Assembly (NCBI GenBank): GCA_036785375.1
Contig: JAWMAR010000074.1
Coordinates: forward strand, 7,068,001-7,132,000
Direction: 5' to 3'
Length of the DNA: 64,000 nt
Source: Leucoraja ocellata
Taxonomy: Eukaryota
Notes under the pieces: model-generated
Told to the model about the DNA's origin: nothing
Seen by the model: the letters and a program-made list of their open reading frames with translations, nothing else
The model's database searches: none
Made by a program: the position numbers and the translations under genes
Shown: piece by piece, positions 1,921-64,000 of the stretch
How the letters are laid out: every line of letters begins with the position of its first letter
How positions within the stretch are numbered: position 1 is the first letter of the stretch

Positions 1921-2388
1921 AAAATCAACATGCCAATTCTATTAATGCCCAGAAACCTGTTAGTCGCTGTTTTCAATGCACACAATAAATCAGCCTTCAC
2001 AGACTTTCAAATTGTAGACTTTCAAATTGTAGACTTTCAAAAGTTCACCATCCAGTTACTGAAAATATTTCTTATTCTGAAACTATGTCTCTCAGTCCTA
2101 GACTCCTCAACCAGAGGATACAATCTTCTCACATCATTTTGATCAATGAGAACTGCTCTAATTTTTCCTCTAATATCTATAGTCATGGTCGATTTCAACC
2201 TTCAAGTGGACAGAGATTGTTTCATCCCATCGAGGTTCAGTCATTTGTTAGCAGTATGAGGACAGGTATTATAATCATTGACATTTACTGTATCCAAACT
2301 CTTAAAGGGATGATTGAAAGAGCTCTTAAAGTGATCAGGCCACCATCAGGAACCAGAAGGAATCTTGAGAAGGATGGTTTGAGGCTAC

Positions 2389-2617
2389 ATGTTTAAGAAG
2401 GAACTGCAGTTGCTGGAAAATCGAAGGTAGAAAAAAATGCTGGAGAAAATTTGCGGGTGAGGCAGCATCTATGGAACGAAGGAAATAGGCAATGTTTTGG
2501 GTCAAAACCCTTCTTCAGACTGAAGAAGAGTTTCGACCCGAAACATTGCCTATTTCCTTCGCTCAATAGATGCTGCCTCACCCGCTGAGTTTCTCCAGCA
2601 TTTTTGTCTACCTTTGA
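2389..2617. mobile_element. Penelope-derived palindromic retroposon with hammerhead-like core
   Basis: ~95-bp inverted arms centred on ttcag-a-ctgaa (~2519). CTGAAGA..GAAAC core on the + arm; the - arm reads AAAAC. Flanked by 11-bp direct repeat tttgaggctac (2378-2388, 2618-2628). Confidence 0.8.
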
Positions 2618-2725
2618 TTTGAGGCTACTGTCCCTTAGAAGCTCTGGTTGCATCAGTGCTAAAGATAGCAACCACTGATTGCTGAATCTATAGCCCACTG
2701 ATTTCCTGAACTTCAGGAGTATTTT

Positions 2726-3698
2726 AGTTCAAGTTCAAGTTCAAGTGAGTTTATTGTCATGTGTCCCTGATAGGAGAATGAAATTCTTGCTTTGCTTCAG
2801 CACAACAGAACTTAGCAGGCATTGACCATAAAACAGATCAGTGTGTCCATATACGATTATATAAATATGTATATATTTACATATATACATGAATAAATAA
2901 ACTGATGAAGTGCAAATAACAGATAATGGGTTATTAATGTTCAAAGTTTTGTCCGAGCCAGGTTTAATAGCCCGATGGCTGTGGGGAAATTGCTTTTCCT
3001 GAACCTGGTCATTGCAGCCTTTAGGCTCCTGTACGTTTTATCTGAAGGTAGCAGGGAGACGAGTGTGTGGCCAGGATGGTGTGGGTCTTTGATGAAACTG
3101 CCAGCCTTTTTGAGGTAGCGACTGCGATAAATCCCCTCGCTGGAAGGAAGGTCAGAGCCGATGATGGACTGGGCAGTGTTTACTACTTTTTGTAGTCTTT
3201 TCCTCTTCAGGGCGCTCAAGTTGCCGAACCAAGCCACTGTGCAACGGGTCAGCATGCTCTCTACTGTGCACCTGTAGAAGTTAGAGAGAGTCCTCCTTGA
3301 CAAACTGAGTCTCCGTAATCTTCTCAGGAAGTAGAGGTGCTGATGTGCTTTCTTGATAATTGTATCAGTGTTCTTGGACCAGGAAAGATCTTCAGAGATG
3401 TGCTCACCCAGGAATTTGAAGCTCTTGACCCTATCAACCATCGACCCATTGATATAAACAGGTCCCCATCCTACTCCTTCCAAAGTCCACAATCAGTTCC
3501 TTGGTTTTGCTGGTGTTGAGGGCCAGGCTGGCACCATATGGACAATTGCTCGATCTCTCTTCTATACTCTGACTCATCCCCATCAGTGATACGTCCCACA
3601 ATAGTGTTGTCGTCAGCGAACTTGATGATGGAATTCGCACTATGACTGGCTACGCAGTCATGAGTATAGAGTGAGCACAGCAGGGGGCTGAGCATGCT
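2726..3698 (-). mobile_element. Rex1/Babar-clade LINE, 5'-truncated and frameshifted
   Basis: RT motifs LSPLLCSLYTHDC..IIKFADD, KTKELIVDF, FKFLG.HISEDLSW..LYFLRRLRR..NFYRCTVES; (TTGAAC)n 3' tail at 2726-2745. Confidence 0.85.
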
Positions 3699-4574
3699 GC
3701 AGTGTGCAGTTATTTCATTGCAGTGACATTTCATGCTCCATGTTCAGTAGCCCTTGTTATCCTTGGATGCACTTACGGTATTTCATAACACATTAATTAT
3801 TTCTGCATTGTATTGATCTTGAAAATAACTACTTACAAATTTTCAATTTGATATTTTCTGAAGGCAACCTTTACTCTCTTTTTTTTAAAGCAATACTATC
3901 TACTCTGTTGCTGCTTAAACTGATTAATGTCAGGCCTTCTGACCTTACAGTAGTGAAATGTTGTACCAATAAAGTTCAATAAATTAGTTGCAATTATGCT
4001 GTCAAGTTGAAAGTGTACTCAATTTATAAAGTATTCAATTTTACTGCCAATCCTAATTGAAGCCAGAAAAACATTTACAATAATTTCATGAGGGATTGAC
4101 CCCCACCGTAGACATGATGGAAATTAGGTTTGACCTTTAACGAAAAGAGCTCATATTATTTTACAAAACAGGCTGACATTTTAATGCTATGACCTGCATG
4201 TATTGCCAGACTGTCCATTGATGACTCATTAACTGGATTTTCTGTTAAAAGTTCAGAATAACAACTATTACAAAATATTGGAGAAAACACAGCACAGGAG
4301 ACTGCAGAGGCTGGAATATTGAGCAAAATAAATGCATAAATGTTCTTTTAATTTTAAAAGTTAAAAATAAATCTTACTTTTATATTTAATATAAAGTGTT
4401 ATTTTAAGAAAAATAGTATCTGTGATGACTTTGGTAGCTGGTGAGCTTTGGGGAAGTGCATCACCAGCCATCAAGGCCTTTGTGGAAAAGAAGTCTGATG
4501 CTTAAGTACGCCGTAAAAACATTCTGCACCCCAAGGAGCTGAGAACTGAGCTGCCAACCAAGGACTGTGTTGGG

Positions 4575-4793
4575 ACTGAAAACAGACACAAAATGATGGA
4601 GTAACTCAGCAGGACAGGCAGCCAGTCTGGAGAGAAGGAATAGCTGAAGTTTCAGGTTGAGACCCTTCTTCAGACTCAAAACGTCATCCATTCCTTCTCT
4701 CCAAAGATGCTGCCTGTCCCGCTGGTGTTGAGTTACTCCAGCATTTTATGTCTATCTTTGGTTTAAACCAGCATCTGCAATTCATTCCTACAC
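4575..4793. mobile_element. Penelope-derived palindromic retroposon (older subfamily)
   Basis: Degenerate inverted arms around cccttcttcagac (~4663-4676), 3' tail aaaccagcatctgca, and 11-bp TSD actgtgttggg (4564-4574, 4794-4804). Confidence 0.75.
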
Positions 4794-5167
4794 ACTGTGT
4801 TGGGCCCACACTGGAATAAACAGTATGGTCCAGTTGCAGAGTGTCTGGCGATACCAAGGGCAGTGAAAGATCAGTACCTTGCCAATTAAAGAGAGCATAG
4901 CTCACTTTCAATATAGAACAAATATCTACCAGGAAATAATTTGATAGGGAAAGTTTTATATGGTGATATTACAGTAACTGATAAAGATTTATCATTACTA
5001 TATATTGCAGGTGTTGCTAAAGCAAATATTGATAAATATTAACATAGCAATTAGTTTCTGTAAATAGATAATTTGTGATGTAACAGACAATTTGTGCTGA
5101 TATCTACATCCGATTTTGTTTCTGCTCTTTCGAGTTACAAATTCTCAGTCAATTATATTTTTAGAAA

Positions 5168-5266
5168 GAAGATAGACACAAATAGCTGGAATAACTCAGC
5201 GGGCCAGGCAGCACCTCAGGAGAGAAGGAATGGGTGATGTTTTGGGTCGAGACCCTTCTTCAGACA
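5168..5266 (-). mobile_element. Penelope-derived fragment with degenerate hammerhead-like core
   Basis: Reverse complement reads tctgaagaagggtctcgacccaaaacatcaccc followed by the family body. Confidence 0.7.
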
Positions 5267-5595: not shown

Positions 5596-6941
5596 TCTAT
5601 ATTACTAAAACTCTGTTCTTGACCGCTTTCGGCTTTCTGTGCTGTGGTTTCCGAGAGTACGCCGCCACCTAGGGCCGTCATTTTTGGCCACCTCGCTCAG
5701 AGCCCCCCTCCGCCGCGTGTGTGCCGAGGATTTTTCCCGTCGTTGAAAATTGACAGAGATATTAATGTTTTTACAACATTTCCCATTTTCTCTGCTGCCC
5801 CTGCTGGAGGGAGGGGGAGCGACTATAAAACCAGGAAGTGGTGTGCCTCAATCAGTCTCTGCAAGTGGTGTGCCTCAATCAGTCTCTGCAAGTGGTGTGC
5901 CTCAATCAGAGCTTTGAATGACACTGACAAATGTCTACAGCACTGTGAGTACCCTCAATTTGGTTTGAAAATGAAAATATGGTTAGAGGTAAAAAAGCAC
6001 TGCCTGCAAATAGTTGTTTGGATTTGGGTTGAAGTAAAAAGGCACTCTCTCTTCCCCCCTCCCTCTCCACTCCCCCCTCCCTCTCCTCCCCCCCCCCCCT
6101 CCCTCTCCTCCCCCCCTCTCCTCTTCCCCCCCCTCTCTCCTCCCCCCCCCTCTCCTCCCCCCCTCTCTCCTCCCCCCCTCTCTCCTCCCCCCCTCTCTCC
6201 CCCCCCTCTCTCCTCCCCCCCTCTCCTCTCCCCCCTCCCCCCTCTCCTCTCTTCCCCCCTCTCCTCTCTTCCCCCTCTCCTCTCCTCCCCCCCCTGTTTC
6301 CCCCTCCCTCTCCCCCTCTCTCCCCCCTCTCTCCCCCCCTCTACTCTTCCACCCCCCTCTACTCTCCTCTCCCCCCTCTCTCTCTCCCCTCTTCCCCTCC
6401 ATCCCCTCCCCCACCATCCCTCCCCTAAACCCCCCTCCCCTCCACCTTCCCTCCCCCTCCTTGCTCCCCACACCTCACCCCCCTCTCAGCACACCCTCTC
6501 TCTCCCCTCTCCCTGTCTCCTCCCCTCTCCCCTCCTTCTCTCTCTCTCCCCCTCACCCACCCTCCCTCCCTCCCCTAAACCCCCTCCACACTCCACACCC
6601 CCTTCCCTCTTCCCGCCTCTCCCTCTCACCCCCTCAGCACGTCCTCTCTCTCCCCTTCACTCTCACCCTCTCTCTCTCCTCCCCTTTCAAGATTCAAGAT
6701 AGATTTAATTGTCACATGTGCCTAATGGCACAGTAAAATGAATTTCACTGTGCCATCAGTAGATAGGGTGGTTATGGGCTAAAAGGAGCAAATTAATAAT
6801 ATTAATATAATATCAAGGGGGGTAATTAGCGTGAGTGCGGGGGGGGGGGGGGATAGTTAGTGTGTGTGTGACGCTGCATGCCGCCTCCCCCCACAACCGC
6901 ACGTTGGGGGAACAGACCCAACGGGTCTGCACTTGGTCTAG
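5596..6941 (+). mobile_element. Non-autonomous Helitron
   Basis: 5' A|TCtatattactaaaa and 3' CTAG|T, GC hairpin cagaccc-aac-gggtctg (6913-6929) just before the end, no TSD, inserted in an AT-rich microsatellite. Contains a 27-bp tandem repeat (5836-5909) and a long C/T tract. Confidence 0.82.
6044..6688. repeat. Polypyrimidine/polypurine low-complexity tract within the Helitron
   Basis: (CCCCCTCTCT)-like degenerate repeats, which explain the Pro-rich and Gly/Glu/Arg-rich ORFs. Confidence 0.95.
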
Positions 6942-7739: not shown

Positions 7740-7741
7740 GA

Positions 7742-7777: not shown

Positions 7778-8127
7778 AGGCTCAGTTCAAGCAATCATTT
7801 ATCTGAAGAACCATCCTAATCTAAAGCATTGCCCGTCCATTCCCTCCACAATTGCTGCCCGACCCCGGAAATCATCCAGCATTATGTGCTTTGCAGAGGT
7901 AGGAAGAATATTGTTTATAATGAGAATCCAAACCTGAGGGGGTTTGTGTGTCCAGCAAATGAATTACAGTTGGCTCAACAAAATGGGACATGATTTTGAT
8001 GCATATTAAATTCAGATAATACTTATTCTAGGATATAAAGCATGGTACATAGTGATGGATGATGGTTTAGTGAGGGCTGTATTCCATTTACATTTTGACA
8101 TATCATTCTGTAGATTTCCCTTCAGGT

Positions 8128-8633: not shown

Positions 8634-9263
8634 TTTAGAAATACAGCAGGGAAACAGGTCATTTGGCCCAACGAGTCAGTACCGACCAGCCATCACTCCA
8701 TACACTAACATTATCCTACACTCTAGGGACAATTTTACAACTTACCAAAGCCAATTAACCTACAAACCTGGAGTGTGGGATGAAACAATAGCACCCGGAA
8801 AAAACCCACGTGATCACAGGGAGAAGGTACAAACTCTATACAGACAGCACCTATGGTCAGGATTGAACCCGGGCCTCTGGTGCTGTAAGGGTTGAAGTAA
8901 AAAGGCACTCTCTCCCCCCCCCCCCCCTCCCTCTCCTCTCCCCCCTCTCTATCCTCTCCCCCCTCCCTCTCCTCCCCCCCCCTCCCTCTCCTCTCCCCCC
9001 CCTCTCCTCTCCCCCCTCCCTCTCCTCTCCCCCCCTCCCTCTCCTCTCCCCCCTCCCTCTCCTCTCCCCCCTCCCTCTCCTCTCCCCCCCTCCCTCTCCT
9101 CTCCCGCCCTCCCTCTCCTCTCCCCCCCCTCCCTCTCCTCTCCCCCCCCCCTCCCTCTCCTCCCCCCCGTCCCTCTCCTCCCCCCCCTCCCTCTCCTCTC
9201 CCCCCCTCTCCTCTCCCCTCCTCTCCTCCCCCCCTCCCCTGTAAGGCAGCAACTCTACTGCCA
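8634..9263 (-). mobile_element. V-SINE split by a ~350-bp Helitron-derived insert
   Basis: SINE tail and body at 8634-8890, head at 9239-9263. Insert 8891-9238 is flanked by ctgtaagg repeats. Confidence 0.75.
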
Positions 9264-10187: not shown

Positions 10188-10497
10188 TGCACGGTGGCAT
10201 AGCGGTAGAGCTACTGCCTTACAGCGCCAGAGACCCGGGTTTGATCCTGACTATGGGTGCTTGTCTGTACAGAGTTTGTACGTTCTCCCCATGACCTGCT
10301 TGGGTTTTCTTCAAGATCTTCGGTTCCCTCCCACACTCCAAAGAAGTACAGGTTTATATGTTAAATGGCTTGGTATAAATGGATAAATGTAAAATTGTCC
10401 CTAGTGTGTGTAGGGTAGTGTTAATGTGCACGGATCGCTTGTCGGTGCAGACTCGGTGAGCCGAAAGGCCTGTTTCCGCACTGTATCTCTAAACTAA
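10188..10497 (+). mobile_element. V-SINE (HE1-like)
   Basis: A/B boxes, V domain and (CTAAA)n tail as at 1606. Confidence 0.88.
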
Positions 10498-10671
10498 ATG
10501 AAAATAAAATGTAGAATCCAAAGGGTTACATCCAATGCTGCCATTGTCCAAACAGTTGACATTGAACACCTTCTCTGTCAGAACATCAACAAATGCTACA
10601 TCAGCCCTTTCATATTTAAAGCCATGTTCCAATGGATAGTGCTGTTTGCCTTGTTTGCTAACTCAAAGCAC

Positions 10672-13460: not shown

Positions 13461-13519
13461 GCTTCATGCATCCTTTCCGCCCACTCCCTCTCTAATCATT
13501 GGCATCCTCCAGAGCTGTT

Positions 13520-14340
13520 TATAGAAACATAGAAATTAGGTGCAGGAGTAGGCCATTCGGCCCTTCGAGCCTGCACCGCCATTCAATATGATCATGGCTG
13601 ATCATCCAACTCAGTATCCCGTACCTGCCTTCTCTCCATACCCTCTGATCCCCTTAGCCACAAGGGCCACATCTAACTCCCTCTTAAATATAGCCAATGA
13701 ACTGGCCTCGACTACCCTCTATGGCAGAGAGTTCCAGAGATTCACCACTCTCTGTGCGAAAAAAGTTCTTCTCATCTCGGTTTTAAAGGATTTCCCCCTT
13801 ATCCTTAAGCTGTGACCCCTTGTCCTGGACTTTCCCAACATCGGGAGCAATCTTCCTGCATCTAGCTTGTCCAACCCCTTAAGAATTTTGTAAGTTTCTA
13901 TAAGATCCCCTCTCAATCTCCTAAATTCTAGAGAGTATAAACCAAGTCTATCCAGTCTTTCTTCATAAGACAGTCCTGACATCCCAGGAATCAGTCTGGT
14001 GAACCTTCTCTGCACTCCCTCTATGGCAATAATGTCCTTCCTCAGATTTGGAGACCAAAACTGTACGCAATACTCCAGGTGTGGTCTCACCAAGACCCTG
14101 TACAACTGCAGTAGAATCTCCCTGCTCCTATACTCAAATCCTTTTGCTATGAAAGCTAACATACCATTCGCTTTCTTCACTGCCTGCTGCATCTGCATGC
14201 CTACTTTCAATGACTGGTGTACCATGACACCCAGGTCTCACTGCATCTCCCCTTTTCCTAGTCGGCCACCATTTAGATAATAGTCTGCTTTCCTGTTTTT
14301 GCCACCAAAATGGATAACCTCACATTTATCCACATTATGC
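13520..14340 (-). mobile_element. CR1-clade LINE 3' portion (young)
   Basis: ORF 13719-14225 ([27 protein letters not shown]..) plus tail. Confidence 0.93.
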
Positions 14341-15851: not shown

Positions 15852-17403
15852 TGTAACCTGAATAATATGAGCCTGGTTCTTCTACGTCTTTATCTTTTTT
15901 TAAGTATTAATGTAATCGTTGATTCTGCTAATGTTTCAGGTAGGATTTGTTCTTTAAAAGCGTATGTATATATTTTCTGTAAACGTGGTGTAACTTTGTC
16001 ATAAAAACATTTATAAAATTTGTTACTGAATCCGTCTGGTCCTGGTGTTTTTCCATTCTTTAGTGTGTTTATTGTGTCTTCTATCTCCTTAGATGTAATC
16101 TGTGCTCCCAGTTCCTCTCGTTCCTTCAATTCTAGTTTTGGAAGGTTACAATTGTCCAAGAACTTTGAAACTTTATTATTATCTGTTAGCGTTTTGGATG
16201 TGTATAAATTCTGGTAAAATTGAGCGAATCTTTTATTGATATAATTAGGTAGTGTTAATAATTCCCCTCTATCTGATTTAATCTTTAAAATTGCGTGGTC
16301 TTTTTCCCGTTTTTTTCAGTTGGCGTGCCAGATGTTTGTGGGGTTTATCTCTTTTGCACGATCTCATAGGGATAATCCCGGAGGAGTTTGATAGAGTCGT
16401 TTCCAAACGTCATCTTCACTCCGTGTTTGATTTTTTTCATCAGCTCTTCCAGTGCTGAAATGTCCCGCAGTTTGATTATGATCTGTCGTGGGTGGGCTAG
16501 TTCTACTTGTGATTTCAGCTTAAATCTGGGTACTCGATGTGCCATTTCAATTTTCGGTTCCACGGGTAAATTGAGTACATGTTTGAGTAAGTTGGCAGTG
16601 AACTCATGGGGGTTGTTTCCCTCTGCTCCCTCTGTTACTCCCAGTATTCTTAAATTTTGGCGTCTTGAGCGAGCTTCGAGATCGAGGCATTTATCCGAGA
16701 CTTTCGCCAGATGACTCTTGAGGCTGTCTAGTTCTAGCTTCATTCCCTGCATATCTTCAGACATTTGTGTAACAACTGTTTCCATGTCTTTCATTGCAGT
16801 TACATTTGAAGAAACAGTTTCATGCCCAGCCTCAAACTTCTTCGTGGAATCTTCTTCCACTTTATCAATTTTCCCCGTTAGCTTTTCTTGCACATCATCA
16901 ATTCTTTTTTTTGTATAATGCCAATGCAATCAATAACTTTTTGATTGCAGCATTGATGTTTGACATATTTTCCATCATTTTTGCATTCATATTTTCCATC
17001 ATTTTTTAATTTCCAGCCTCAATATCATTTCTCAGTTCTCTTACCGAATTCTTTATCTCCTCAAGTTCATTTTTCTCCTTAGTAGCCATCTCAGTCTTGT
17101 ATCTTGTAGCTATTGTAACCACTTCAGAGGTCAGTTCTTCAGGTTTCTGGCTTTTCAGCAGGTGTTTTGAAGCTGTTCTCTGAGGGATCTGAGCTGGAGA
17201 CGTTTTTTTCATTTAAAAGCCTTTATCCTCCGTTTAATTCACAGCGCTTACTGATGACGTCATCAGCGCGACGTCCAGGGGCTCCGGTAAGTTTTTGAAT
17301 AGGTCCCGACCTCCAGACACGATTTTAACGCAAAGAATCGCGTATTTTCAGCAGCGGAGCTAAATGGTGCGACTGCTAGTCCAGCATGGCGCCGCCGGAA
17401 GTC
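15852..17403 (-). mobile_element. L1-clade LINE: intact 5' end, frameshifted ORF1, internal deletion, ORF2 fragment
   Basis: 5' terminus GACTTCCGG.. at 17403 and CpG-rich 5'UTR. ORF1 shows coiled coil plus LEARSRRQNLRILGV; junction at ~16350 joins to ORF2 DKPHKHLARQL..KTPGPDGF..STITLILKK. Confidence 0.88.
17251..17266. promoter_or_regulatory. Palindromic CRE/ATF site in the L1 5'UTR
   Basis: Perfect 16-bp palindrome CTGATGACGTCATCAG containing TGACGTCA. Confidence 0.5.
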
Positions 17404-18159: not shown

Positions 18160-18917
18160 TAAAGTCAACTTTAAGGCAAGGCACAGTCCCAAGGCAACTT
18201 TAGCATTCTCAAACCAACTTTTCAATTAGGCAAGACATTCGCTAACCAACTTTTCAATTAGGCAAGGCAACTTTAGCATTCTCAAACCAACCTTTCAATT
18301 AGGCAAGGCAACTTTAGCATTCTCAAATCAACTTTTCAATTAGGCAAGACAATTTCCAAACCAAAGGCAACACAGCTTTAGTATTTCCAAACCAACGGCA
18401 ACACAGCTTTAGCATTTCCAAACCAAAGGCAACACAGCTTTAGCATTTCAAAACCAAAGGCAACACAGCTTTAGCATTTCCAAACCAAAGGCAACACAGC
18501 TTTAGCATTTCCAAACCAAAGGCAACACAGCTTTAGCATTTCGCAACACAGCTTTAGCATTTCCAAACCAAAGGCAACACAGCTTTAGCAATTCAAAACC
18601 AAAGGCAACACAGCTTTAGCATTTCCAAACTATATTTTCAAGCCACATTAAGGGCACTGACTGAGGCACTCAACACATCCGGGTTTTATAGTCCCTCCGG
18701 AAGGGGCATAGCCTTCAGGAGAGAGTATCTCAACATTTTTTAAACACTATTAACTCTTTTATTTTTCATCGATGGGAACAATCCTCTTGTCCTGCGCAGT
18801 GGAGGGAGACTCCGAGTCAGATGGCCAAAAATCATAGCCATAAGAGGCAAAACTTTTTCTAAAATCATTATACAGAACACCAGGAAGTGGTCAAGATCAG
18901 ACTTTTAGTAATATTGA
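18160..18917 (-). mobile_element. Helitron 5' portion with internal minisatellite
   Basis: Reverse complement begins A|TCaatattactaaaagtctgatcttgacc, matching the 5596 Helitron start. Also shares the gactataaaacc..gtgcctca motif. Confidence 0.75.
18170..18630. repeat. Composite minisatellite: ~45-bp units then 31-bp units (aaaccaaaggcaacacagctttagcatttcc)
   Basis: 31-nt period visible from 18358 (about 9 copies). The earlier units share the aaggcaac and tttagcatt motifs. Confidence 0.92.
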
Positions 18918-19447
18918 TTATTGGGAGAAATATTTTGGATTTCTTGAATTTTGTTCTGTACTTTGATTCATTATATTTGTTACAGAGGGAGAGAAAAACA
19001 GAAAATACAAATAATAAGAACATAACAATGGGTATGGGCCACCCGGCCCTTCAAGTTTGCTCCAGCGTTAATTGAGATCATGGTTAATGAATTGCTTCAA
19101 TTACATTTCCCCATCTGCAGTTCTCATATCTCCTTATTCCTTCTTTATTCAGAAATAAATCCATGACAGAGTTCCCACAACACTTGTTGAGAGAGAATTT
19201 CAAAGATTCATCACCTTCTATGTGAAAACCTTTCTCTTATCACAGTCCCAAATGGCCTCCCTCTCTTTCTGGGGTTGTGACTCCCTGGTTCCAGACTCCT
19301 CAGCTAGAAGAAGATCCTTCCTGCATCCAGCCTGTCAAGGTTTTCGTCCTGGATGTGTGGGGCACCAGCTACTCTCAAGATGCTTGACACCATACAGAGC
19401 AAAGCACATTCATTACTTGGCATCTCATCAACCATACTAAACTATAC

Positions 19448-19712
19448 CCCAGCGGTATGAACACTGACTTCTCTAACTTCAAATAGCTCTTGCTTTCCCA
19501 CTCTCCCCCTTCCATTCTCCCACCGGTCTTACTGCCTCCGACTACATTCTATCTCTGTCCCACCCACTACCTTGACATCGGTCTGAAGAAGGGTCTCGAC
19601 CCAAAACGTCACCAATTCTTTCTCTCCAGAGATGCTGCTTGTCCCGCTGAGTTACCCCAGCATTTTGTGCCTACCTTTGATTTAAACCAGCATCTGCAGT
19701 TCTTTCCTACAC
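19448..19712 (+). mobile_element. Penelope-like element 3' end: ORF terminus, 3'UTR and hammerhead-like motif
   Basis: 19448-19486 encodes PSGMNTDFSNFK*, resembling the GIY-YIG C-terminal P-x-G-x-N motif. It is followed by ggtCTGAAGAagggtctcgacccAAAACGTCacc (~19581-19613) and the tail shared with the palindromic elements. Confidence 0.75.
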
Positions 19713-19909
19713 ATATTAAACATTCATTCTCCCCACCACTAGCTCACAGTGACTGCAATGAATACTATCTATTAAATATAAAGTAGCAATAGCATTTAAA
19801 AAAACTCAAACTCTACCATCAAGAAGGACAAGGACAGATAGCATTTGGGGAACGCCACTGCAAGTTCCTCTCCATGTCATCTTGGAGAGTTATTGCCAGT
19901 ACCTACCCA

Positions 19910-20205
19910 ACACAGTAGCGGTAGAGTTGCTACCCATACAGTGCCAGAGACCTGAGTTTGATTCTGACTATGAAGGGCAATCTCTACGGAGATTGTATGC
20001 AATCATTGTGACCGCAAGGGTTTTCTCCGGGTGCTCCAGTTTCCTCCCAAGTTCCAAAGAAGTAAAGAAGTAAATGTTTATAGGTTAATTGTTTTCTTTT
20101 AACTGCAAATTGTCCCTAGTGTATAGGATAGTGCTTGTGTATGGGGTTATCGCTGGTCGGCGAGGACAGTGGGCCAATCGCCTATTTCTACGCGGTATCT
20201 CTAAA
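19910..20205 (+). mobile_element. Degenerate V-SINE
   Basis: tRNA-like head, V domain and tail. Confidence 0.78.
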
Positions 20206-42280: not shown

Positions 42281-42418
42281 TTAGGATAACAGGTGGTGCC
42301 TAACTTACAATTTCTGTTTATAATTTTAGATTTCAAGCAGCTGCAGTATTTTCCCTTCAGATAAACAAGAAAATGTGAGAAAGAAGGGTTCTGTGCAGTA
42401 GAATCAGGAGATGGTACA

Positions 42419-42605: not shown

Positions 42606-42844
42606 CTCAGCTCTGAACAACAAGAAAGGCAAGGGCATCAACAAGCAGAGCAGGGTGTACTGTATCTGAGAACATTTCATCAATGTTCTCCAATGACAAA
42701 TATCAAGAAAAGGATATTTCTCCAATGTCAGGAAAAGGATAGAAGTTTTAATTTGATAGTTAAATCAATGGAGGAAGGTCACTGGTCCAAATACAAATCA
42801 GTAGCTGTTTTGACTCATTAATACATTAATATTAAGAATGCCTC

Positions 42845-43308
42845 ATAGAAACATAGACAATAGGTGCAGTAGTAGGCCATTCGGCCCTTCGAGCCTGCAC
42901 CACCATTCAATATGATCATGGCTGATCATCCAACTCAGTATCCTGTACCTGCCTTCTCTCCATACCCCCTTATCCCTTTTGCCACAAGGGCCACATCTAA
43001 CTCCCTCTTAAATATAGCCAATGAACTGGCCTCAACTACCTTCTGTGGCAGAGAATTCCAGAGATTCACCACTCTCTGTGTGAAAAATGTTTTTCTCATC
43101 TCGGTCCTAAAGGATTTCCCCTTTATCCTTAAACTGTGACCCCTTGTCCTGGACTTCCCCAACATCGGGAACAATCTTCCTGCATCTAGCCTGTCCAACC
43201 CCCTAAGAATTGTGTACGTTTCTATAAGATCCCCCCTCAATCTTCTAAATTCTAGCGAGTACAAGCCGAGTCTATCCAATCTTTCTTCATATGAAAGTCC
43301 TGACATCC
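42845..43308 (-). mobile_element. CR1 LINE 3' end (young)
   Basis: ORF 42935-43306 is nearly identical to 1048-1353. Confidence 0.93.
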
Positions 43309-45204: not shown

Positions 45205-46718
45205 GAGTTTCTTAGAACCTTCTGGGATGTCCTGGGGGGTGACTATATGAAGGTCCTGGATGAGAGCCTGGTGACCGGGGAGATGCCCTTCGCATGGAGC
45301 AGGGCAGTCGTTGTCCTGCTGTCGAAGAAGGACGATCTCTGCCTTTTGAACAACTGGCGCTCGGTCTCTCTCCTCAGTACAGAATACAAAGTCTTTGCAC
45401 GGGCAATGGCAAACTGCCTGGGTCCCGTGCTGGCCCAAGTGATCCACCTGGACCAGTCCTACACAGTCCCGGGCCGGTCCATCCAGGACAATATCCATCT
45501 GATTCGGGACCTGGTCCATCTGTCCCAGGGGGCTGGACAGTCAGTTGCCTTTCTCTCCCTTGGCCAGGAGAAGGCGTTCGACAGGGTGGATCACGACTAC
45601 CTTCTTGGGACTCTGCAGGCGTTCAAATTTGGACTGCATTTCGTGGCCCGAGTCCGGCTTTTGTGCGCTGCTGCAGAATGCCTTGTTAATGTCAACGGCT
45701 CTTTGTTGGCCCCCTCACTTCAGGAGGGAGGTACATCAGGGATGTTCCATGTCCGGCCAGCTGTATTCCGTCTGTGTAGAGCCATTCCTGTGCCTTCTCC
45801 GGAGGCGGTTGACAGGCCTGGCTTTACTGGGGCCGGGGGTAGAGGTGGTTCTTTCAGCCTACGCCGATGATGTCATTTTGATGTTCACCGACCCTTTTGA
45901 CCTGCGGAGGATGCGTGAGTGCCAGCAGGTTTTCTCGGCTGCATCCTACACCAGGATCAACTGGGAGAAATGTTCTGGTCTCTTGGTGGGACAGTGGGAG
46001 GTAGACTTCCTGATGGAGGAGATGACATCTTATGCGTGGAGCACCACGCACCTCCTCCAACTTGGGGGTCTACTTGAGTCTCACTGAGAGGGATTGGCCG
46101 GCAAACTGGCAGGAGCTGGAGGCGAAAGTCACTGCTCGGCTAGGGTGTTGGTCAGGCCTCCTTGGCGTGCTTTCTTACCGGGGGAGAGCATTGGTCAAAA
46201 AACCAGCTGGTGGCCTTTATGATGAGGTACCGGCTTGCCACTCTGGTCCCACCCTCTTTATTTATCGCCATGATCAGAGGAGGTTGGTGAACGTCTTCTG
46301 GGGAGAGAAGAATGATTGGGTCTCTGCAGGGGTTTGGAGTCTCCCATTGGAGGAGGGCGGTCAGGCACTTGTTTGCGTCCGTACCTGGTGGCAGCTCTCC
46401 GTCTCAGGACCCTGCGGAGGTATCCGAGTGTCCTACTAGATGGCACGCTCTGGCGACGTACTTTTTCTGCCAGGGTCGCTGATTCCAGGAGGGCACACAG
46501 TTCCCGGTAGCGGGCATTAGTCAACACGCTAGATGGGAGTTGCCTGGCTTTTATCGAGATATACTTAAAGACAGGAATCTGATCACCTTCAGCCAGGGCG
46601 CTGCTCCTCGGGGTGAAGGAGGTGTTGTGGCTGCGAGGGTGGATGGTCCTCACACTGTCACGGTGGGTATCGAGGAGAGGCGTGAGCGTGGAGCGATTCC
46701 GTCCAAGCTTACCCCCGG
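45205..46718 (+). mobile_element. Tx1-clade LINE ORF2 (RT) pseudogenic fragment
   Basis: NWRSVSLLSTEYKVFARA..DQSYTVPGRSIQDN..QEKAFDRVDHDYL, VHQGCSMSG and AYADD across frameshifts. Confidence 0.88.
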
Positions 46719-47574: not shown

Positions 47575-48269
47575 TACTCAGGTCCTGTGCATGGACTCGG
47601 CATGAATCGTTCTATATAGCATTGTATGAGCATGCCTTGCCTTCCTGCCTCGATGTGCCCCAAATTTAAAATGTTCCAGTTGGCATCTGCCCAATTTCAT
47701 CTAATATTTCAAAGGAGTTATGTGTTCAGCACTAATTGGAATTTAAAGGCAAGATTTATAAAGTGACAGAATAATCCAGTGGTGTAATTCTCACCTTTTG
47801 TTCAGCAGATTGGGAGTTTAAAACTGCATGCCAGGACACCCGAGGACAGGCCTGGACTGTCACGATGGTCTTTTGACAGGATGCAGCTGTCAAAGGCATT
47901 CATATTGGTTTTAAATATTTCTAACTATTAGAATCATACACTTCAAATGGGGTTAAATAACAATTTTGTTCAAAAGCATCTTTCAGTGCTAAAAACTAAA
48001 TCAAGATTTGAATGGTCAATAAAAAAGGAAATAAACACTTTACAACATTAACCCTTTCAAGCGATGTTCACTTCAAGTGCATTCAGCTTCTCAGCTCCCT
48101 CCTCTGATGTTTCAGTCCCACATCGGGAGACATAAGGCTGAGTCCAGCAGAAAAGAGGAACCTTCAGCACATTCTGGACCTTCAGCCTGACTTCACAGGT
48201 AAGATGTTTTTTAAGCAGAAACTGCTGACACCCAGTATCAATCGGCAAAATTCCAAACATTAAACATTA

Positions 48270-48564
48270 AACATAGAAACATAGAAAGTAGGTGCAGGAG
48301 TAGGCCATTCAGCCCTTCATGCCAGCACCGCCATTCAATATGATCATGGCTGATCATCTAGAATCAGTATCCTGCTTTCCCCCCATATCCCTTGATTCCA
48401 TTAGCCCTAAGAGCTCTATCTAACACTCTCTTGAATACATCCAGTGAATTGGCCTCCACTGCCTTCTGTGGCAGAGAATTCCACAGATTCACAACTCTCT
48501 GGGTGAAAATGTTATTCCTCATCTACCCCTTACTCTGAAACTGTGACCCCTTGTTCTGGACTCT
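48270..48564 (-). mobile_element. CR1 3' end
   Basis: (CATAGAAA)n tail and 3'UTR. Confidence 0.88.
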
Positions 48565-48790
48565 GGAGGCAAGAAAGGTCTAAAACAAATCAGGGCCGGC
48601 AACAGGTGGCCTCGGGAAAGGGGGAGACGATAATGGATGTGCTAACGAAAGGGATAGCAATGCAAACAGTGGAACTAGGAGAGCCACTAGCGTGGGGGGG
48701 GGGGGGGGGGGTGGGGGGGGGGGGAGGGAATGCAGGAGTTACTTGAAGTTACAGAAATCAATGTTCACACCGCTGGGTTGTAAACTACCC
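48565..48790 (-). mobile_element. Penelope-like element ORF terminus and 3'UTR fragment
   Basis: Minus strand 48789-48739 encodes GSLQPSGVNIDFCNFK*, homologous to 19448-19486. Confidence 0.7.
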
Positions 48791-50089: not shown

Positions 50090-50840
50090 AACATGGTGTA
50101 TGGTACACCAGCTGCACAGCGGCTCAGAGGAAAGCGCTCCAGAGGGCCATTGACAACGCCCAGAGGATTGTCGGCTGCCCTCTCCTTACCTTGGAGGACT
50201 TACACAGTTCATAGAAACATAGAAATTAGGTGCAGGAGTAGGCCATTCGGCCCTTTGAGCCTGCACCGCCATTCAATATGATCATGGCTGATCATCCAAC
50301 TCAGTATCCCGTACCTGCCTTCTCTCCATACCCCCTGATCCCCTTAGCCACAAGGGCCACATCTAACTCCCTCTTAAATATAGCCAATGAACTGGCCTCA
50401 ACTACCCTCTGTGGCAGAGAGTTCCCGCTGCATCAAAAAATCCCAGAGTATTATAAAGGACATTTCCCACCCCGGACACTCCCTGTTTGAACTGTTGCCG
50501 TCAGGCAAACGGTACAGATCTACAAGGACAAGGACGAACAGACTAAAAAACTGTTTTTACCCCACTGCTATAAAAGCACTAAATGTAGCCGCCAAGGAAC
50601 GCAGGGGCGATACATACTAAGGGACTGTGGTACACTGTGAAACCAACAGAAGGATGGAGGGTTGGGTGTTTATGCGTGCTATTTTCGTGATATTTATTTT
50701 AGTTGTTTATCTTTTAATATTTTATCTTGTATGTATCGTTAGCTTTTAGAAATGTTTGAATGGTGCACTGACTGGCTGACATTTTTAAATTTCATTGTAC
50801 ATGCTTCATGTTACAATGACAATAAAGAAACTATTCTAAA
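50090..50840 (+). mobile_element. Rex1/Babar 3' end interrupted by a young CR1 tail (50209-50424, -)
   Basis: IIKDISHPGHSLFELLPSGKRYRS..; the insert matches the young CR1 3'UTR. Confidence 0.83.
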
Positions 50841-54419: not shown

Positions 54420-54592
54420 CAAGAGTTAGATTTAGCTCTTAGGGCAAAAGGAATTCAAGGAATATGGGAAAAAAGCAGGAATGGGGTACTGATTTTGGAT
54501 GAACAGCCATGATCATATTGAATGACGGTGCTGGCATGAAGGGCCGAATAGCCTTCTCCTGCACCTATTTTCTATGTTTCTATGTTTCTATG
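54420..54592 (+). mobile_element. CR1 3'UTR and tail
   Basis: (TTTCTATG)n tail. Confidence 0.85.
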
Positions 54593-55475: not shown

Positions 55476-55551
55476 TTGGTAAGTGCTTTGATTGCAGACT
55501 ATAGGTAATCCAGATCCCAGAGGCATACAAGAAGGCAGGGCTCATAGTTGT

Positions 55552-55736
55552 TTAAGAAGGAACTGCAGATGCTGGAAAATCGAAGGTACACAAAAATGCT
55601 GGAGAAACTCAGCGGGTGCAGCAGCATCTATGGAGCGAAGGAAATAGGCAACGTTTCGGGCCAAAACGTTGTCCATTTCCTTCGCTCCATAGATGCTGCT
55701 GCACCCGCTGAGTTTCTCCAGCATTTTTGTGTACCG
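55552..55736. mobile_element. Penelope-derived palindromic retroposon (hammerhead core deleted at the apex)
   Basis: ~72-bp arms within 55585-55735. TSD ggg[c/a]tcatagttgt (55538-55551, 55737-55750). Confidence 0.82.
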
Positions 55737-56639
55737 GGGATCATAGTTGTCTGGTTGACCATTGGTTTTGTGCCAAAACTTAGGTCTTGATCTTCAAATA
55801 TCTTTTACCTCAATCAACCAAAGTTTGTGTTGGTGCAGTAAAGGTGGTGATGAATTTTATCACTGATTAATGAACCTGCAAATCATTCTTGGATTATGGG
55901 AGGCGGCTAAAGCACTCAGGTGGAACGGGTATGGTGTAAAGTCCACACAGATAGCACTTGATTGAACCTGGATTATTAGAGCTGTGAGATAGCAACACTA
56001 ACTACGGCACCAATATATCACCCAAATTCCCTTTGGTAAATCCTGGGCTTCGAGTGGACATGAATGAGGGTTTTAACATGCTAGGGGCAATGACAGGAAC
56101 CCAATCATTTGAAATAAAGGGCTTGTAGGACTGGAGGCTTGTAAATACCAGATGGTGTAACTTGTATTGGAATCATTATCCTCTCGAACATATGTTAAAA
56201 ATGTGTGTTGAGTGTTGATCACTTCCTGAGTGAACACTGCTGGCTAAAATAAATTAGTGGTTACATTAGGTTGTGGTGTGTCTCTGCTCGAGCTTCAGAG
56301 AGGGGGAACGGAAATAGTTTCTTGTTCGAAGAGACAGCTTTAGGGAGGCGGAACACAGGAGGTGAGGTTACAAGATCTACAGGATGGGGTGGCCTTGACA
56401 TGGCAGTCTCTTTATTTTTCCAATTCCAATGCATTTGGAACACACAACATGGACCAGTACAGTAGATGACCAGGGCCTCATAGAACAGTACACAGGAACA
56501 GACACTGGCACCAGGAAGGTCACAAGGCCCTCCAGCTCTTCCTTGACCAAGAACCCAATCTGTTTTCCTCTACCAACACTGTTCTCTGCATGGTGGAACT
56601 TGTCCTGACCCTCAACAATTTTTGTCCTTTGACTCATCT

Positions 56640-57404: not shown

Positions 57405-58408
57405 CAGTGCATTCAGAAAGTATTCAGACCTCTTCACATTTTTCCACATTTTGTTACGTTAGAGCCTTATTCTAAAATGGATTAAATTCTTTTTTTTTTT
57501 ATCAGCAATCTACACACAATAGCCCATAATAAAAAAGTGAAAACAGGTGTTTAGAAATTTTTGCAAAATAATTAAAAATAAATAACTGAAGTATAACATT
57601 TACATAAGTATTCAGACCCTTTACTCAGTACTTTATTGAGGCACCTTTGGCAGTGATTACAACTTCAAGTCTTCTTGGGTATCACGCTACAAGCTTGGCA
57701 CACCTGTATTTGGGTAATTTATCTCATTCTCCTCTGCAGATCCTCTCAAGCTCTGTCAGGTTGGATGGGGAGTGTCGATGCACAGCTATTTTCAGGTCCC
57801 TCCAGAGATGTTCGATCGGGTTCAAGTCCGGGCTCTGGCCGGGCCACTTACGGACATTCACAGACTTGTCACAAAGCCACTCTTGCATTGTCTTGGACAT
57901 GAGCTTTAGGTCGTTGTCCTGTTGGAAGGTGAACGTCTGCCCCAGTCCGAGGTCCAGAATGCTCTGGAGCAGGTTTTCATCAAGGATCTCTCTATACTTT
58001 GCTCCGTTCATCTTTACCTCGATCCTGACTGGTCTCCCAGTTCCTACCGCTGAAAAACATCCCTACAGCAAGATGCTGCCACCACCATGCTTCACCGTAA
58101 TATGGTATTGGCCAGGTGATGAGCGGTGCCTGGTTTCCTCCAGGCGTGACACTTGGCATTCAGGCCAAAGAGTTCAATCTTGGTTTCATCAGGCCAGGGA
58201 ATCTTGTTTAGGTGCCTTTTGGCAAACTCCAAGCGGGCTGTCATATGCCTTTAACTGAGGAGTGGCTTCTGTCTGGCCACTCTACAATAAAGGCCTGATT
58301 GGTGGAGTGCTGCAGATATAGTTGTCCTTCTGGAAGTTTCTCCCATCTCCACAGAGGAACTCTGGAGCTCTGTCAGAGTGACCATCGGGTTCTTGGTCAC
58401 CTCCCTGA
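57405..58408 (-). mobile_element. Tc1 (DD34E) DNA transposon: right TIR and degraded transposase C-terminal half
   Basis: TA|CAGTGcattcagaaagtattcagacc terminus, with aagtattcagacc repeated at ~57418 and ~57607 (IR/DR type). FQQDND..WPGQSPDLNPIEHLW motif. Confidence 0.92.
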
Positions 58409-59943: not shown

Positions 59944-62038
59944 CAGCTTTGCAAAGTCAAAATTTCCTCACAGCTTGCCTCGATTTCTACCGGACAATGC
60001 AACAGGAAGGGCAATAATCGATCACCAAATTTCTTGCTGAACTTTGCACCCAGGCAAAGGCATGTGATTTTAAAGCTCAATGCACAATGCATTGTGGGAT
60101 AGACTGGTCATGGGCTGCAGGCACGCATTCATTCATCAGGCGATTCTCAAGGAATCAGATGCTTCATTGAAAAATGTGCTGCAGTGCGCTAAGATGGACG
60201 AGCTGCTAAGTAAAGAACTGCACAAAATGGCCGGCGAAACAGTGTCGAAGCTCCCTCAGGAGGTCCATACAGTTCGTCAGACTCGTCCTCAACGCCAGAA
60301 ACCAGTTGATCGACTCAGAGCAAATCCGGAGAAGGTGGGACAGTTTCAGAAGAGCCGTCCCTCTGTGGGGGGTGGATCGAAACCCTGTTACCGGTGCAGC
60401 TCGACTGCTCATCATCACCGTGAGTGCCCGTATATCGAGTCCGTTTGTTATACCTGTTATCTCCAGGGTGTCAATCCGTAGGAAAGCTGAGAAAAGGCAA
60501 GAATGCGCAAAAGACAGTCGACCAAATCGCTGAGACCATTTCTATTGAAGTGCTCGGTGTGTCTACAATCACCGACGAGCCAAGGATTTCGCTGCTGGTC
60601 TCGAACGTCCATCTACAGTTCCAGGTGGACACTGGTGCGGCTGTGTCGCTAGTGGGTCAGGACATCTGGGAGAGGATCAGATCGCTGAAACTGAAACGGG
60701 CCAACATCCGCCTTTTCGGATACGGACGACAGCTCATTCCCATGAAAGGCAAATGCACTGTTGCTGTTTCCTGTAATGGTATGACACAGATGTTTGTCGT
60801 TGGCAAAGAACGTAAATCGCTGGATGGTGCCATCGACTGGATCCATGCTTTCAAGCTTTACATGAATGCCTTGATCTACGATGGATCAACTATGGCATTG
60901 TCATCTACCATGGATTGCAACATGGTCAGCAAGTGCGAAAACAAGCTGCAGAAGGTTCTTGACCAGTTTCCGGTCGTTTTTGCACCTGGACTCGGGCATT
61001 GCACAAAGATGTAGGCTCGGCTCATACTCAAATATGATGCCATCTTTAAGTTCTTCAAACCAAGACCAGTTCCGCTCGGTCGGATGGACGCCGTCGACAA
61101 GGAACTCTGCTGTCTTGAAGAAATGGGAATTATCACCCATGTGGAACATTCAGACTGGGCCACACCCATAGTTGTCGTTCAGAAGCCTTGCAGCAAGGTG
61201 CGCATCTGTGGCGACTACAAAGTGACTGTAAACCCTCAATTACACATTGATCAACAACCCCATACCAAGAGTGGATGAGCTGTTCATCAAGCTGCAAGGA
61301 GGACAGTACTTCTCGAAATTGGACACGTCCGAAGCGTACCTCCAAGTGGAACTGGACGACGAGACAAAAAAACGTCTCGTCGTCCAGACAATACAACTGA
61401 TTGTCATTTGGACCAGCACCGAGAAACCGGTCGACAATCTGGTTGCCGGGATTCTGTGAGTAGCCACCTACCTGGATAATTGTCACCGGCCTGACAGAGG
61501 AAGAACACCTGCAGAACCTGAAACATGTCCTCACGGCACTGAACAACTATGGCATGAAGTTGTGCATGGACAAGTACGCATTCTTCCGACAACAGGTCAC
61601 ATATCTCGGACATGCGATCTCGGCAAGTGGTCTGAAGTCATCAGAAGAAAGAGTGGACGCCATTGTGAAATTGCCGATGCCCGAAAATGTGAAGCAGCTT
61701 GAAAGCTTCATTGGAAAGGAGAACTACTATGGCAAATTCACACCGGCACTTTCGACTTTGTGCGCACCATTGAACAACCTGTGAAAACAGGACATCGAAT
61801 GGCACTTGTCCAAAGAGTGTGACCATGCATTCACCAGGTTGAAGGAGATGCTCGTCCAGAAGACGCATTTGGTCCACTATGACCCATCGAAGCAGATCTC
61901 GCTGGCCGCCGATGCATCGCCGTATGGTCTCGGAGCTGTAATCTCACAAACGGCGCCGAACAGCAAGGAAGAACCAATCGCATTTGCATCCAACATGCTG
62001 ACGACCACCAAGAAAAACTACAGTCAAGTGGAGAAAGA
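59944..62038 (+). mobile_element. Ty3/Gypsy (Mag/K02A2.6-like) gag-pol remnant
   Basis: CCHC knuckle CYRCSSTAHHHREC, protease VDTGAAVS, RT WATPIVVV..RICGDYK..YFSKLD, RNase H ADASPYGLGAVI. Multiple stops and frameshifts; no LTR or integrase seen. Confidence 0.9.
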
Positions 62039-62361
62039 ACATACAGATAAAGCAAATACTGATATCTCTTCAAAAGAGAACACGAGGAAAACTCTGTTGA
62101 TTCTGAGCCTTTAGCAATAGTTGTGAACCGGGTCAGGCAGCATCTCTGGAGAATATGAATTGACAATGTTTCAGGCAGAAGGGTCCCAACCTGAATCTTT
62201 GCCACTCCATGTTCTCCAAAGATGCTGACGGACTCAATGAAAGACTTTGTACCTATTCGGTTTACTCAGCCTTGCTTAACTCCAGTTCATACCGCTGCCT
62301 TGATGAATCTTGCCGCTGGTGTCTGGAAGTACAATCATTAGATGTCTCTGCACCAGACTTA

Positions 62362-62686
62362 AGGGCCTGTCCCACTTTCACGATTTAATTCAAAACCTCT
62401 GCCGTGTTTAAAGGACTTTAAAAAAATAAGATTGTGGTAATCTACGAACTCCTACGACCTTCCACGACTCTGTTCACAAACTCCTACGAACTCCTACGAG
62501 TATGTCTACGAATTCCCACAACTATTTTGATGCCCTCCTTACGAGTAAAAAGTTGCAGTTTCTTTCATCCCAACCATTTTTTTATTCGTGGACATTTTTT
62601 ATTGGGCTGGAAAAAACTTCCCGACTTACCTGATGCCACGAGTGACTACGGCTGGCATAACGAGCTGCTACGATATATCTACGAAC
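62362..62686. mobile_element. Probable non-autonomous DNA transposon end (PIF/Harbinger-like) running into the gap
   Basis: ttaa-gggcctgtcccact terminus and repeated ctacga subterminal motifs. The other end is not visible. Confidence 0.45.
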
Positions 62687-62897
62687 NNNNNNNNNNNNNN
62701 NNNNNNNNNNNNNNNNNNNNNNNNNNNNNNNNNNNNNNNNNNNNNNNNNNNNNNNNNNNNNNNNNNNNNNNNNNNNNNNNNNNNNNNNNNNNNNNNNNNN
62801 NNNNNNNNNNNNNNNNNNNNNNNNNNNNNNNNNNNNNNNNNNNNNNNNNNNNNNNNNNNNNNNNNNNNNNNNNNNNNNNNNNNNNNNNNNNNNNNNN
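62687..62897. other. Assembly gap (211 N)
   Basis: N run. Confidence 1.
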
Positions 62898-63021
62898 GAG
62901 ACTGGTGAGATGTAGTCCAGAACTTGAAGACAATTATCGCAACTTTCTGCAGAACTCTAAGTACATCAGGTGACCACAGAGATCATTTTGTGCACAATCC
63001 ACTGAACTATTTCTTATTCCA

Positions 63022-63180
63022 GTTCCATAAGTTCATAAGTGATAGGAGCAGAATTAGGCCATTTGTCCCATTAAGTCTACGCTGCCATTCAATCATGGCT
63101 GATCTATCTTCCCCTCTCAACCCCATTCACCTGCCTTCTTCCCATAATCCCGGACACGCGTACTAATCAAGAATCTATCT
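63022..63180 (-). mobile_element. CR1-type 3' tail
   Basis: cataagttcataag..gcagaattaggccatt..atcatggctgatc. Confidence 0.7.
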
Positions 63181-63383
63181 TTGCCTATTCCTCCCACTCT
63201 CCTAACCCACCCTTTCCCTTCCACCCTACATCCCTCCCTCTGACTTTACATTTTACTCCCCTTTGTTCCAAGTCCAGTTGCATCTTTCGATGCATTCCCT
63301 GCTTTTATATCCTTGTTTTTATATCCTTAAGCCTGGGCTCATCAGAGGACAGTTCACACACTTCCCAAAATTATACGTAGAAT

Positions 63384-63509
63384 GCGTGGAATCAGTCTGA
63401 GGAGGGTCTCGACCCGAAATGTCACCCATTCCTTCTCTCCAGATACGCTGCCTGTCCAGCATTTTGTCTCTGCCTTCGATTTAAACCAGCATCTGCAGTT
63501 CTTTACCAC
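63384..63509 (+). mobile_element. Penelope-derived single-arm insertion starting just upstream of the hammerhead-like core
   Basis: cagtCTGAGGAgggtctcgacccGAAATGTCaccc; TSD attata[c/t]gtagaat (63370-63383, 63510-63523). Confidence 0.75.
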
Positions 63510-64000
63510 ATTATATGTAGAATTTTACATTGTAATTTTGCAACACTGGAAATCGGTAAAGTGACTGACTGCAGATATGAATTTTGGAGAATTGATTGGC
63601 TGATTAGTGTATTTGAACATTGATGGTCCAAAAATACTTTCCTTTAGGTTCAATTCTTTTGAACATGGAGCAAATGAGGGGAATTGGAAAGTAGGAGGAT
63701 GGGGTGCAAATATTACCTTCTCAAAGGCAATTGGGGGCATGCAATAAAATGCTGGATTTACTAGTGATGTTGAAATTCTCAAAATAACTTTTAAAAAGAA
63801 TAAAACACTTAACAACATATACCTTTTCAGACAAGGTGGGTGATGCCATTTGATTGAATGGGGGCTATCGCATAGGTCCAATGTTAAAGGTTTGTTTATT
63901 GTCACATGTACCAATTAAGGTTCAGTGAAATTCAGATTACCATACAGTCATACCAATAAAAGGGAACAAGACACCCAAATACATTTTTAACATGAACATC

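Follow-up and report, generated by a model that had tools for sequence, protein, structure and literature searches.

What kind of mobile element leaves tiny, hammerhead-bearing repeats scattered along the genome of Leucoraja ocellata? The repeats in question lie in a 64-kb stretch of contig JAWMAR010000074.1 (assembly GCA_036785375.1, positions 7,068,001 to 7,132,000; hereafter the window, within which all copies were counted). An earlier reading of the letters without database searches, here called the sequence-only reading, took them for retrozyme- or short interspersed element (SINE)-like units that carry a hammerhead ribozyme and are mobilised by enzymes of Penelope-like elements (PLEs). 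Our analysis supports the Penelope origin and the hammerhead, and makes mobilisation by PLE enzymes probable; the retrozyme- or SINE-like character did not hold up. We consider it likely that the copies are extremely 5´-truncated, dead-on-arrival insertions of an endonuclease-bearing (EN+) PLE, probably of the Neptune clade, with at least two subfamilies. The arm of about 95 nt would then probably be the non-coding 3´ end of that PLE, its pseudo-long terminal repeat (pLTR), with a minimal hammerhead at the 5´ edge, and an extension of about 36 nt would be the PLE tail.

A dispersed family of palindromes and single arms

Self-comparison of the window revealed a repeat family at every position named in the sequence-only reading, and this comparison together with a profile search recovered all 11 of its listed copies. 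The profile, built from 14 seed arms, matched 22 segments at E<1e-3, whereas the reversed window, used as control, gave no match; beyond the listed copies, the profile hit 7803, 26076, 29683 and 62129/62175. A second model, using sequence without structure, found 21 segments at E≤2e-8, 16 of which had been in its training alignment; the next match came only at E 0.005. The segments group into 14 loci (2389, 4575, 5168, 7803, 19581, 25555, 26076, 28572 with 29683, 33858, 34984, 42068, 55552, 62129 and 63384), so that the earlier count of 10 or more copies stands and the density of roughly one per 6 kb becomes one per 4.6 kb. If a separate upstream fragment is counted, the family amounts to about 2.3 kb, or 3.6% of the window. 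Two weak arm-model matches (26465-26540, minus strand, and 44330-44380, plus strand; E about 0.005) are possibly very old copies.

Head-to-head palindromes with a one-sided tail are an anatomy that the sequence-only reading missed. Six of the 14 loci (2389, 4575, 28572, 42068, 55552 and, degraded, 62129) are inverted pairs of the arm, joined at the 5´ side of the hammerhead. In all five that are flanked by target-site duplications (TSDs), one arm stops near ...CTACC and the other, tailed arm extends 36-38 nt further, to near ...ACA. The tail lies on the left in three of these and on the right in two, and three single-arm copies carry it as well, giving eight tail ends. The copies are listed here, with an apparent open reading frame (ORF) end beside one of them and an inserted long interspersed element (LINE) in another.

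2389-2614, palindromic, subfamily B: tail on the minus arm (2389-2518), none on the plus arm (2520-2614); the centre reads TCAG-A-CTGA, and the arms, of 101 nt, are 90% complementary; TSD 2378-2388 / 2618-2628
4575-4793, palindromic, subfamily A: tailless minus arm at 4575-4675; the plus arm, 4673-4793, begins within helix II and carries the tail; TSD 4564-4574 / 4794-4804
5168-5266, minus strand: single arm, subfamily A, without tail or TSD; G12 mutated
7802-7892, plus strand: single arm, old and diverged; absent from the earlier list
19445-19713, plus strand: longest copy, subfamily A; the C-terminal end of an apparent ORF with its stop (19442-19486) is followed by a C/T-rich 3´ tract (19487-19579), the hammerhead (19580-19613; helix I 3 bp, G12 mutated), the body and the tail; candidate 10-bp TSD 19433-19442 / 19712-19721 (p=0.026)
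25555-25607, plus strand: 5´ half of an arm, diverged
26070-26133, plus strand: internal arm fragment, diverged; absent from the earlier list
28572-29758, palindromic, subfamily B: the minus arm (28572-28658) lacks a tail and has an intact core (28631-28658); a LINE separates the plus arm into 28660-28706 and a tailed part, 29683-29758; TSD 28561-28571 / 29762-29772
33860-33950, minus strand: single arm, subfamily B, without tail; possible AT-rich 10-bp TSD 33850-33859 / 33960-33969 (p=0.003)
34984-35112, plus strand: diverged single arm with tail, subfamily A; both core boxes present, 3 extra nt ahead of helix II, helix I 1 bp
42068-42280, youngest palindrome, subfamily B: minus arm with tail, plus arm with intact core 42187-42214; inverted repeat 89 bp, perfect (100%); TSD 42053-42067 / 42281-42295
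55552-55736, palindromic, subfamily B: tail on minus arm; inverted repeat 75 nt, 96%; TSD 55538-55551 / 55737-55750
62127-62245: degraded palindrome, without tail or TSD; absent from the earlier list
63384-63509, plus strand: single arm with tail, subfamily A; internal deletion of 20 nt; TSD 63370-63383 / 63510-63523
48716-48790, minus strand: the apparent ORF end and the beginning of the 3´ tract in a second copy; hammerhead end absent

The two subfamilies, A (4575, 5168, 19581, 34984, 63384) and B (2389, 28572, 33858, 42068, 55552), differ in the alignment by substitutions and by indels of 1-2 nt, and because of these indels the arm looks non-coding. No TSD-flanked palindrome combines arms of different subfamilies. 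A tree of the arms, from which two of the 16 rows were omitted, was poorly resolved (2 of 11 branches supported) and backed only the grouping of 42068 with 55552. Judged by eye, the junctions at 2389 and 28572 fall at a native palindrome, TCAG-T-CTGA, directly before the core, those at 42068 and 4575 are overlaps of 1-4 nt, and that at 55552 is the helix-II palindrome, which accounts for the absence of CTGAAGA there. The occurrence of four different junctions among five TSD-flanked palindromes argues that the palindromes are made afresh and are not copied as units.

Some borders resemble splice acceptors: a pyrimidine run that ends in CCAG opens the tail (for example 42093-42100, minus strand), and CAG stands directly 5´ of helix I at 25555-25561 and 63391-63397. 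For D. virilis Penelope, an intron end has been mapped to the 5´ end of helix I (PMC4209133).

Target-site duplications of variable length

Direct repeats at 17 spans were tested against 3000 random flank pairs. The six variable-length repeats described in the sequence-only reading all proved to lie at element ends, each with p≤0.002, and measure 11, 11, 11, 15, 14 and 14 bp, with one mismatch in each 14-bp repeat. Among the other spans, 33858 gave p=0.003 and both the long 19445 copy and 25555 gave p=0.026; 8 of the 17 were not significant. The duplication cactgtttaag holds only when 28572 and 29683 are joined across a LINE insertion of about 1 kb. [quoted passage not shown]

Inverted repeats of 75-101 nt between flanking duplications recall a miniature inverted-repeat transposable element (MITE) with long terminal inverted repeats, derived from a cut-and-paste DNA transposon. 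The sequence-only reading had named a fixed TSD length as the mark of such an element; here the length ranges from 11 to 15 bp. The termini, moreover, are asymmetric, with a one-sided tail in five of five cases, the centres differ, 8 of the 14 loci are single arms, and one arm is joined to an apparent ORF end. A MITE is thus the least probable of the explanations that we considered, and we give it very little credence.

A minimal hammerhead at the edge of the arm

The consensus of 16 arms reads CTGAAGAA-GGGTC-TC-GACCC-GAAA-CGTC. It has the elements CUGANGAH, a helix II opened by G-C, GAAA, a palindromic NU and H, and agrees position by position with the published minimal PLE hammerhead consensus through the core, helix II and the ACGU palindrome (rows of PMC4209133 Fig S3), as expected if, as had been claimed, this is a minimal type I hammerhead. 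The exact pattern CTGANGA-N8-22-GAAACGTH occurs three times in the window and not once in 100 shuffles, so the motif is not due to chance. That most copies retain it was an overstatement, since CTGANGA is found in 11 of 21 segments, GAAACGTH in 5 and both in 3; the accompanying caution that several cores are mutated was well placed, G12, which lies within a CpG, being intact in 9 of 16 arms and lost in 7. The core has decayed after insertion. In helix II, 88% of alignment cells are paired. Helix I has 3 bp in 19581, and 2 bp, a 2x2 loop and 5 bp in 63384; in six arms with a relaxed full core it is reduced to 0-2 bp, because palindrome formation takes away the native upstream strand, which is absent from most copies.

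Structure-based searches gave little. Covariation of the helices did not rise above shuffles (187-460 of 500 shuffles reached the observed values), RNAalifold found no consensus pairs in the arm alignment, and Rfam, to which the sequence-only reading had looked for confirmation, returned no hammerhead at E≤10 in the whole window or in any of three short regions. Rfam microRNA (miRNA) matches, which we attribute to the long hairpins, stayed below gathering scores. The 42068 copy folds into a hairpin of 89 bp (-193 kcal/mol, z -27), and the best predicted fold of 28628-28665 (minus strand) and of 42181-42222 is not a hammerhead. Hammerhead-like helices I and II were predicted for 63384 alone, no better than for shuffles, and self-dimer folds of six copies did not yield the ACGU-paired dimer, a result that is uninformative for a helix this short. 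Judging from their cores and predicted folds, the individual copies appear to be mostly dead as ribozymes. For minimal PLE motifs, the published cleavage is weak and depends on dimers (PMC4209133) or on the element's protein (PMC11167929).

Ends of the copies and the state of the template

The 5´ ends of the copies cluster upstream of the cleavage site, and the 3´ ends form two clusters one tail-length apart. With cleavage placed at +27 relative to C3, 18 of 19 arms start between -19 and +21, the negative values being blurred by overrun of the local alignment; the remaining arm, a degraded fragment, starts at +30. Because the arms start upstream of the cleavage site, the RNA that was copied was uncleaved. 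After all eight tail ends we found only target DNA, with no match to the element or to one another above background, and there are therefore no tandems.

These ends bear directly on the retrozyme-like reading, under which tandem units of a retrozyme without long terminal repeats (non-LTR) would self-cleave at the hammerhead, circularise and reinsert. A hammerhead core does exist, and pLTR-derived retrozymes were detected in the sole chondrichthyan genome sampled in a recent account (bioRxiv 10.64898/2026.07.22.740005). Yet none of the eight tail ends opens a head-to-tail unit, the copies lie head to head, the only arm that starts at the cleavage site is the degraded fragment, and the core, which 3 of 21 segments keep intact, is of the minimal PLE type. 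Within the window this explanation is largely refuted, and we consider it highly improbable. Nor is a SINE-like unit supported, given the absence of tandems, the differing junctions and one copy contiguous with an apparent ORF end; there is no tRNA and no Rfam match to tRNA, 5S or 7SL in the window that could serve as a head, although A and B boxes were not scanned separately. No match came from two scans of GTDB genomes for exact patterns or from plasmid and phage sequences searched with blastn, as would be expected of an animal repeat.

A possible link to a coding element

Upstream of its hammerhead, the copy at 19581 extends for another 138 nt, crossing a C/T-rich tract and reaching a stop codon that follows LYPSGMNTDFSNFK. 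On the minus strand at 48777, another fragment is 82% identical over 62 nt to 19448-19509 (E 1e-12) and reads GSLQPSGVNIDFCNFK, with the stop in register; of the six differences in the 39 coding bases that the two share, three fall at third positions. The endonucleases of the Neptune clade end in rows such as GTLEPG-GLN, and the Poseidon rows of the same figure lack this pattern (PMC8557442 Fig S2). By eye, the peptide at the ORF end resembles the end of a Neptune-clade endonuclease; the motif is short and database searches gave no confirmation, and we regard the likeness as suggestive. Word-indexed searches returned one and two candidates, none at E≤10, and neither Pfam nor the protein atlas contained a match. 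A full search with a hidden Markov model yielded 11 proteins; by Pfam, 9 of them are unrelated (cytochrome c, RCC1-like and others) and the remaining 2 belong to no family, and we set all of them aside as noise.

Truncated Penelope-like insertions as the favoured explanation

The inverted, 5´-truncated pLTR at 6 of 14 loci, the one-sided tail in five of five cases and the variable TSD at six loci are structural features of PLEs, and together with the hammerhead consensus they point to the Penelope origin that the sequence-only reading had suggested. The repeats behave like the end of a PLE, and the ORF link would complete formal membership. The host is a plausible one: the best named relatives of a neighbouring CR1-like LINE protein are from cartilaginous fishes (72%, 69% and 60%), and Penelope elements are reported from the whale shark (PMC8455134) and, in one survey, from every vertebrate covered (PMC4350176).

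We suggest that a protein with reverse transcriptase (RT) and GIY-YIG domains would nick both target strands 10-15 nt apart, and that cDNA would be primed at one or both nicks on uncleaved RNA. Initiation could occur at two internal RT start sites, the tail end or the pLTR end, which would explain why only one arm carries a tail. Synthesis would stop near the 5´ border of the hammerhead, most likely by run-off at the 5´ end of the transcript if RT starts at the sites in the 5´ pLTR copy, and otherwise at a strong stop. Where both nicks are extended, pairing of the cDNA 3´ ends at TCAG-T-CTGA or at the helix-II palindrome may produce a head-to-head palindrome that has a single tail. Such products would be dead on arrival, as the ribozyme loses its helix I partner, sits in a long hairpin and decays at CpG.

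Several observations weigh against this explanation. The ORF-end peptide comprises about 16 residues, 6 of 100 shuffles contain the bare motif twice, and four database searches with the peptide found no PLE. A scan of the window for RT and GIY-YIG motifs found no PLE domain of either kind, although short PLE fragments may escape such a scan. The TSD of the long 19445 copy is weak (p=0.026), and none of the five subfamily-B loci is linked to the ORF. Outside CpGs, conservation is higher in the core than in the body (128/140 vs 762/925; p=0.007, from rows that are not independent), which fits selection in the source elements. Twin priming is, moreover, indistinguishable here from the fold-back self-priming that has been proposed for PLEs (PMC3846280), which accounts equally for the identical arms of 42068 and needs a separate reason for the stop of the short arm at the pLTR end. 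Finally, only 1 of 14 loci reaches past the hammerhead, where random 5´ truncation would scatter the ends far more. Why the other 13 end at the same border is the part for which truncation does not account; run-off from the 5´ pLTR of a full-length RNA would suffice, as would a strong stop or a separate short transcript.

The last of these would make the source a dedicated non-coding master of about 130 nt from hammerhead to tail, transcribed alone and mobilised in trans by PLE enzymes in the manner of a SINE. The starts of 18 of 19 arms within about 40 nt, the lack of anything upstream in 13 of 14 loci and the five subfamily-B loci without an ORF link would follow from such a master, and pLTRs alone can direct integration in trans (PMC3846280). 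We nevertheless think it unlikely: subfamily A includes an ORF-linked member, there is no tRNA-derived head, the 5´ ends are scattered (about 25 nt) and associated with palindromes, and internal RT initiation in the 5´ pLTR of full-length RNA, as may be drawn from PMC11167929, would yield the same products. Similarly doubtful is the wider proposition that a PLE 3´ end has become the dominant non-autonomous unit of about 130 nt, bounded 5´ by the hammerhead and spread by PLE enzymes to several per cent of the genome, mostly through double-ended priming that leaves MITE-like palindromes. Such a retro-MITE/SINE class would use the ribozyme as a structural boundary or protein-binding site and not as a nuclease.

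Comparison with known systems

If the copies are truncated PLE insertions, they most likely follow a pattern already known from other animals and do not represent a new kind of element. Inverted pLTRs, one-sided tails, palindromic junctions and short TSDs are on record for PLEs (PMC3846280, PMC8557442, PMC8969392). The head-to-head inverted repeat and the junction palindrome are shared with Adineta Pen2a (PMC3846280) and with the general EN+ PLE scheme (PMC8557442 Fig 2), as are, for EN+ PLEs, a tail of 30-40 nt at a single end, a short variable TSD and 5´ truncation. The published insertions described there enclose an ORF or a long insert and have TSDs of 8-10 bp, whereas here the palindromes are bare, with 185-226 nt and TSDs of 11-15 bp, and, unlike those insertions, nearly all copies end at the hammerhead.

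The motif itself resembles the metazoan PLE minimal type I hammerheads (Cervera and de la Pena 2014, PMC4209133) in its CUGANGA with an extra nucleotide, the G10.1-C11.1 pair, the GAAA-C-G-U-H palindrome without a helix III loop and its mostly single occurrence; single minimal hammerheads from truncated PLEs are described in that paper as widespread. Helix I has 2-3 contiguous bp here compared with 2-6 in its rows, and the helix II loop here has 2-4 nt. Schistosoma has hammerhead pairs on opposite strands 100-700 bp apart (PMC4209133), whereas the paired motifs here stand back to back; the Fig S3 rows examined include no cartilaginous fish.

Poseidon_Ac of the green anole (PMC11167929) likewise has two 3´ ends one tail apart, about 95 and 130 nt past the hammerhead, an apparently uncleaved RNA template and extension of both strands. 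In vitro, its protein is reported to nick and extend both strands without need of hammerhead cleavage, and to initiate at two sites separated by the length of a tail. The ORF of Poseidon_Ac starts in stem II, in contrast to the arm here, which looks non-coding, and our ORF-end motif is nearer to the Neptune rows. Metazoan non-LTR retrozymes (PMC7229834; bioRxiv 10.64898/2026.07.22.740005) are also short, non-coding, hammerhead-bearing and pLTR-related. They are defined in those sources by head-to-tail tandems, typically with canonical hammerheads, whereas the present copies are dispersed, head-to-head or single, with minimal, decayed motifs.

The family is not described for sharks or rays in the literature searched, which included few subscription journals, and it may well be catalogued in Repbase or Dfam. 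Every ingredient has been published; the worth of these repeats is as a natural data set and a mechanistic test set for two open PLE questions, the origin of inverted pLTRs and tails and the part played by hammerhead cleavage during transposition. With both 3´ ends, the junction and the TSD within 200 bp and at high copy number, twin priming vs self-priming and cleaved vs uncleaved template become countable genome-wide. The palindromes could also supply long hairpin RNA, and are easily mis-annotated as MITEs or miRNA precursors.

Other repeats in the window

The LINE that interrupts the 28572 palindrome is a 3´ fragment of about 975 bp with a (TAA)n end (28707-29682), whose insertion cost the target about 3 bp. 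The fragment is young, since another copy, at 38422-39110, matches it with 99% identity over 689 bp, and it post-dates the palindrome; a related RT ORF (RVT_1) lies at 36063-37505. The 3´ fragments of CR1-like LINEs number at least nine, and some of them show 98-99.5% identity. These fragments and a second dispersed repeat of about 300 bp, SINE-sized and 67-84% identical, lie at the following positions, together with further features.

993-1449, 13517-14157, 25611-25933, 31073-32190, 40547-41174, 42843-43309, 48269-48563, 50207-50425 and 54422-54590: CR1-like LINE 3´ fragments
1607-1924, 8634-8890, 10189-10507, 19913-20205, 26559-26854, 29913-30211 and 33438-33750: repeat of about 300 bp
2941-3492: LINE frame matching ALKBH8_N
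16345-16929: coiled-coil ORF1-like frame
45190-45870: RT (RVT_1)
57724-58062: Tc1-type DDE transposase
60424-61014: weak aspartyl-protease match, LTR retroelement
62687-62897: N gap, 211 bases
6045-6576 and 8908-9238: two related C/T-rich arrays
18190-18630: minisatellite with units of 31, 41 and 21 bp, the 31-bp unit in about nine copies

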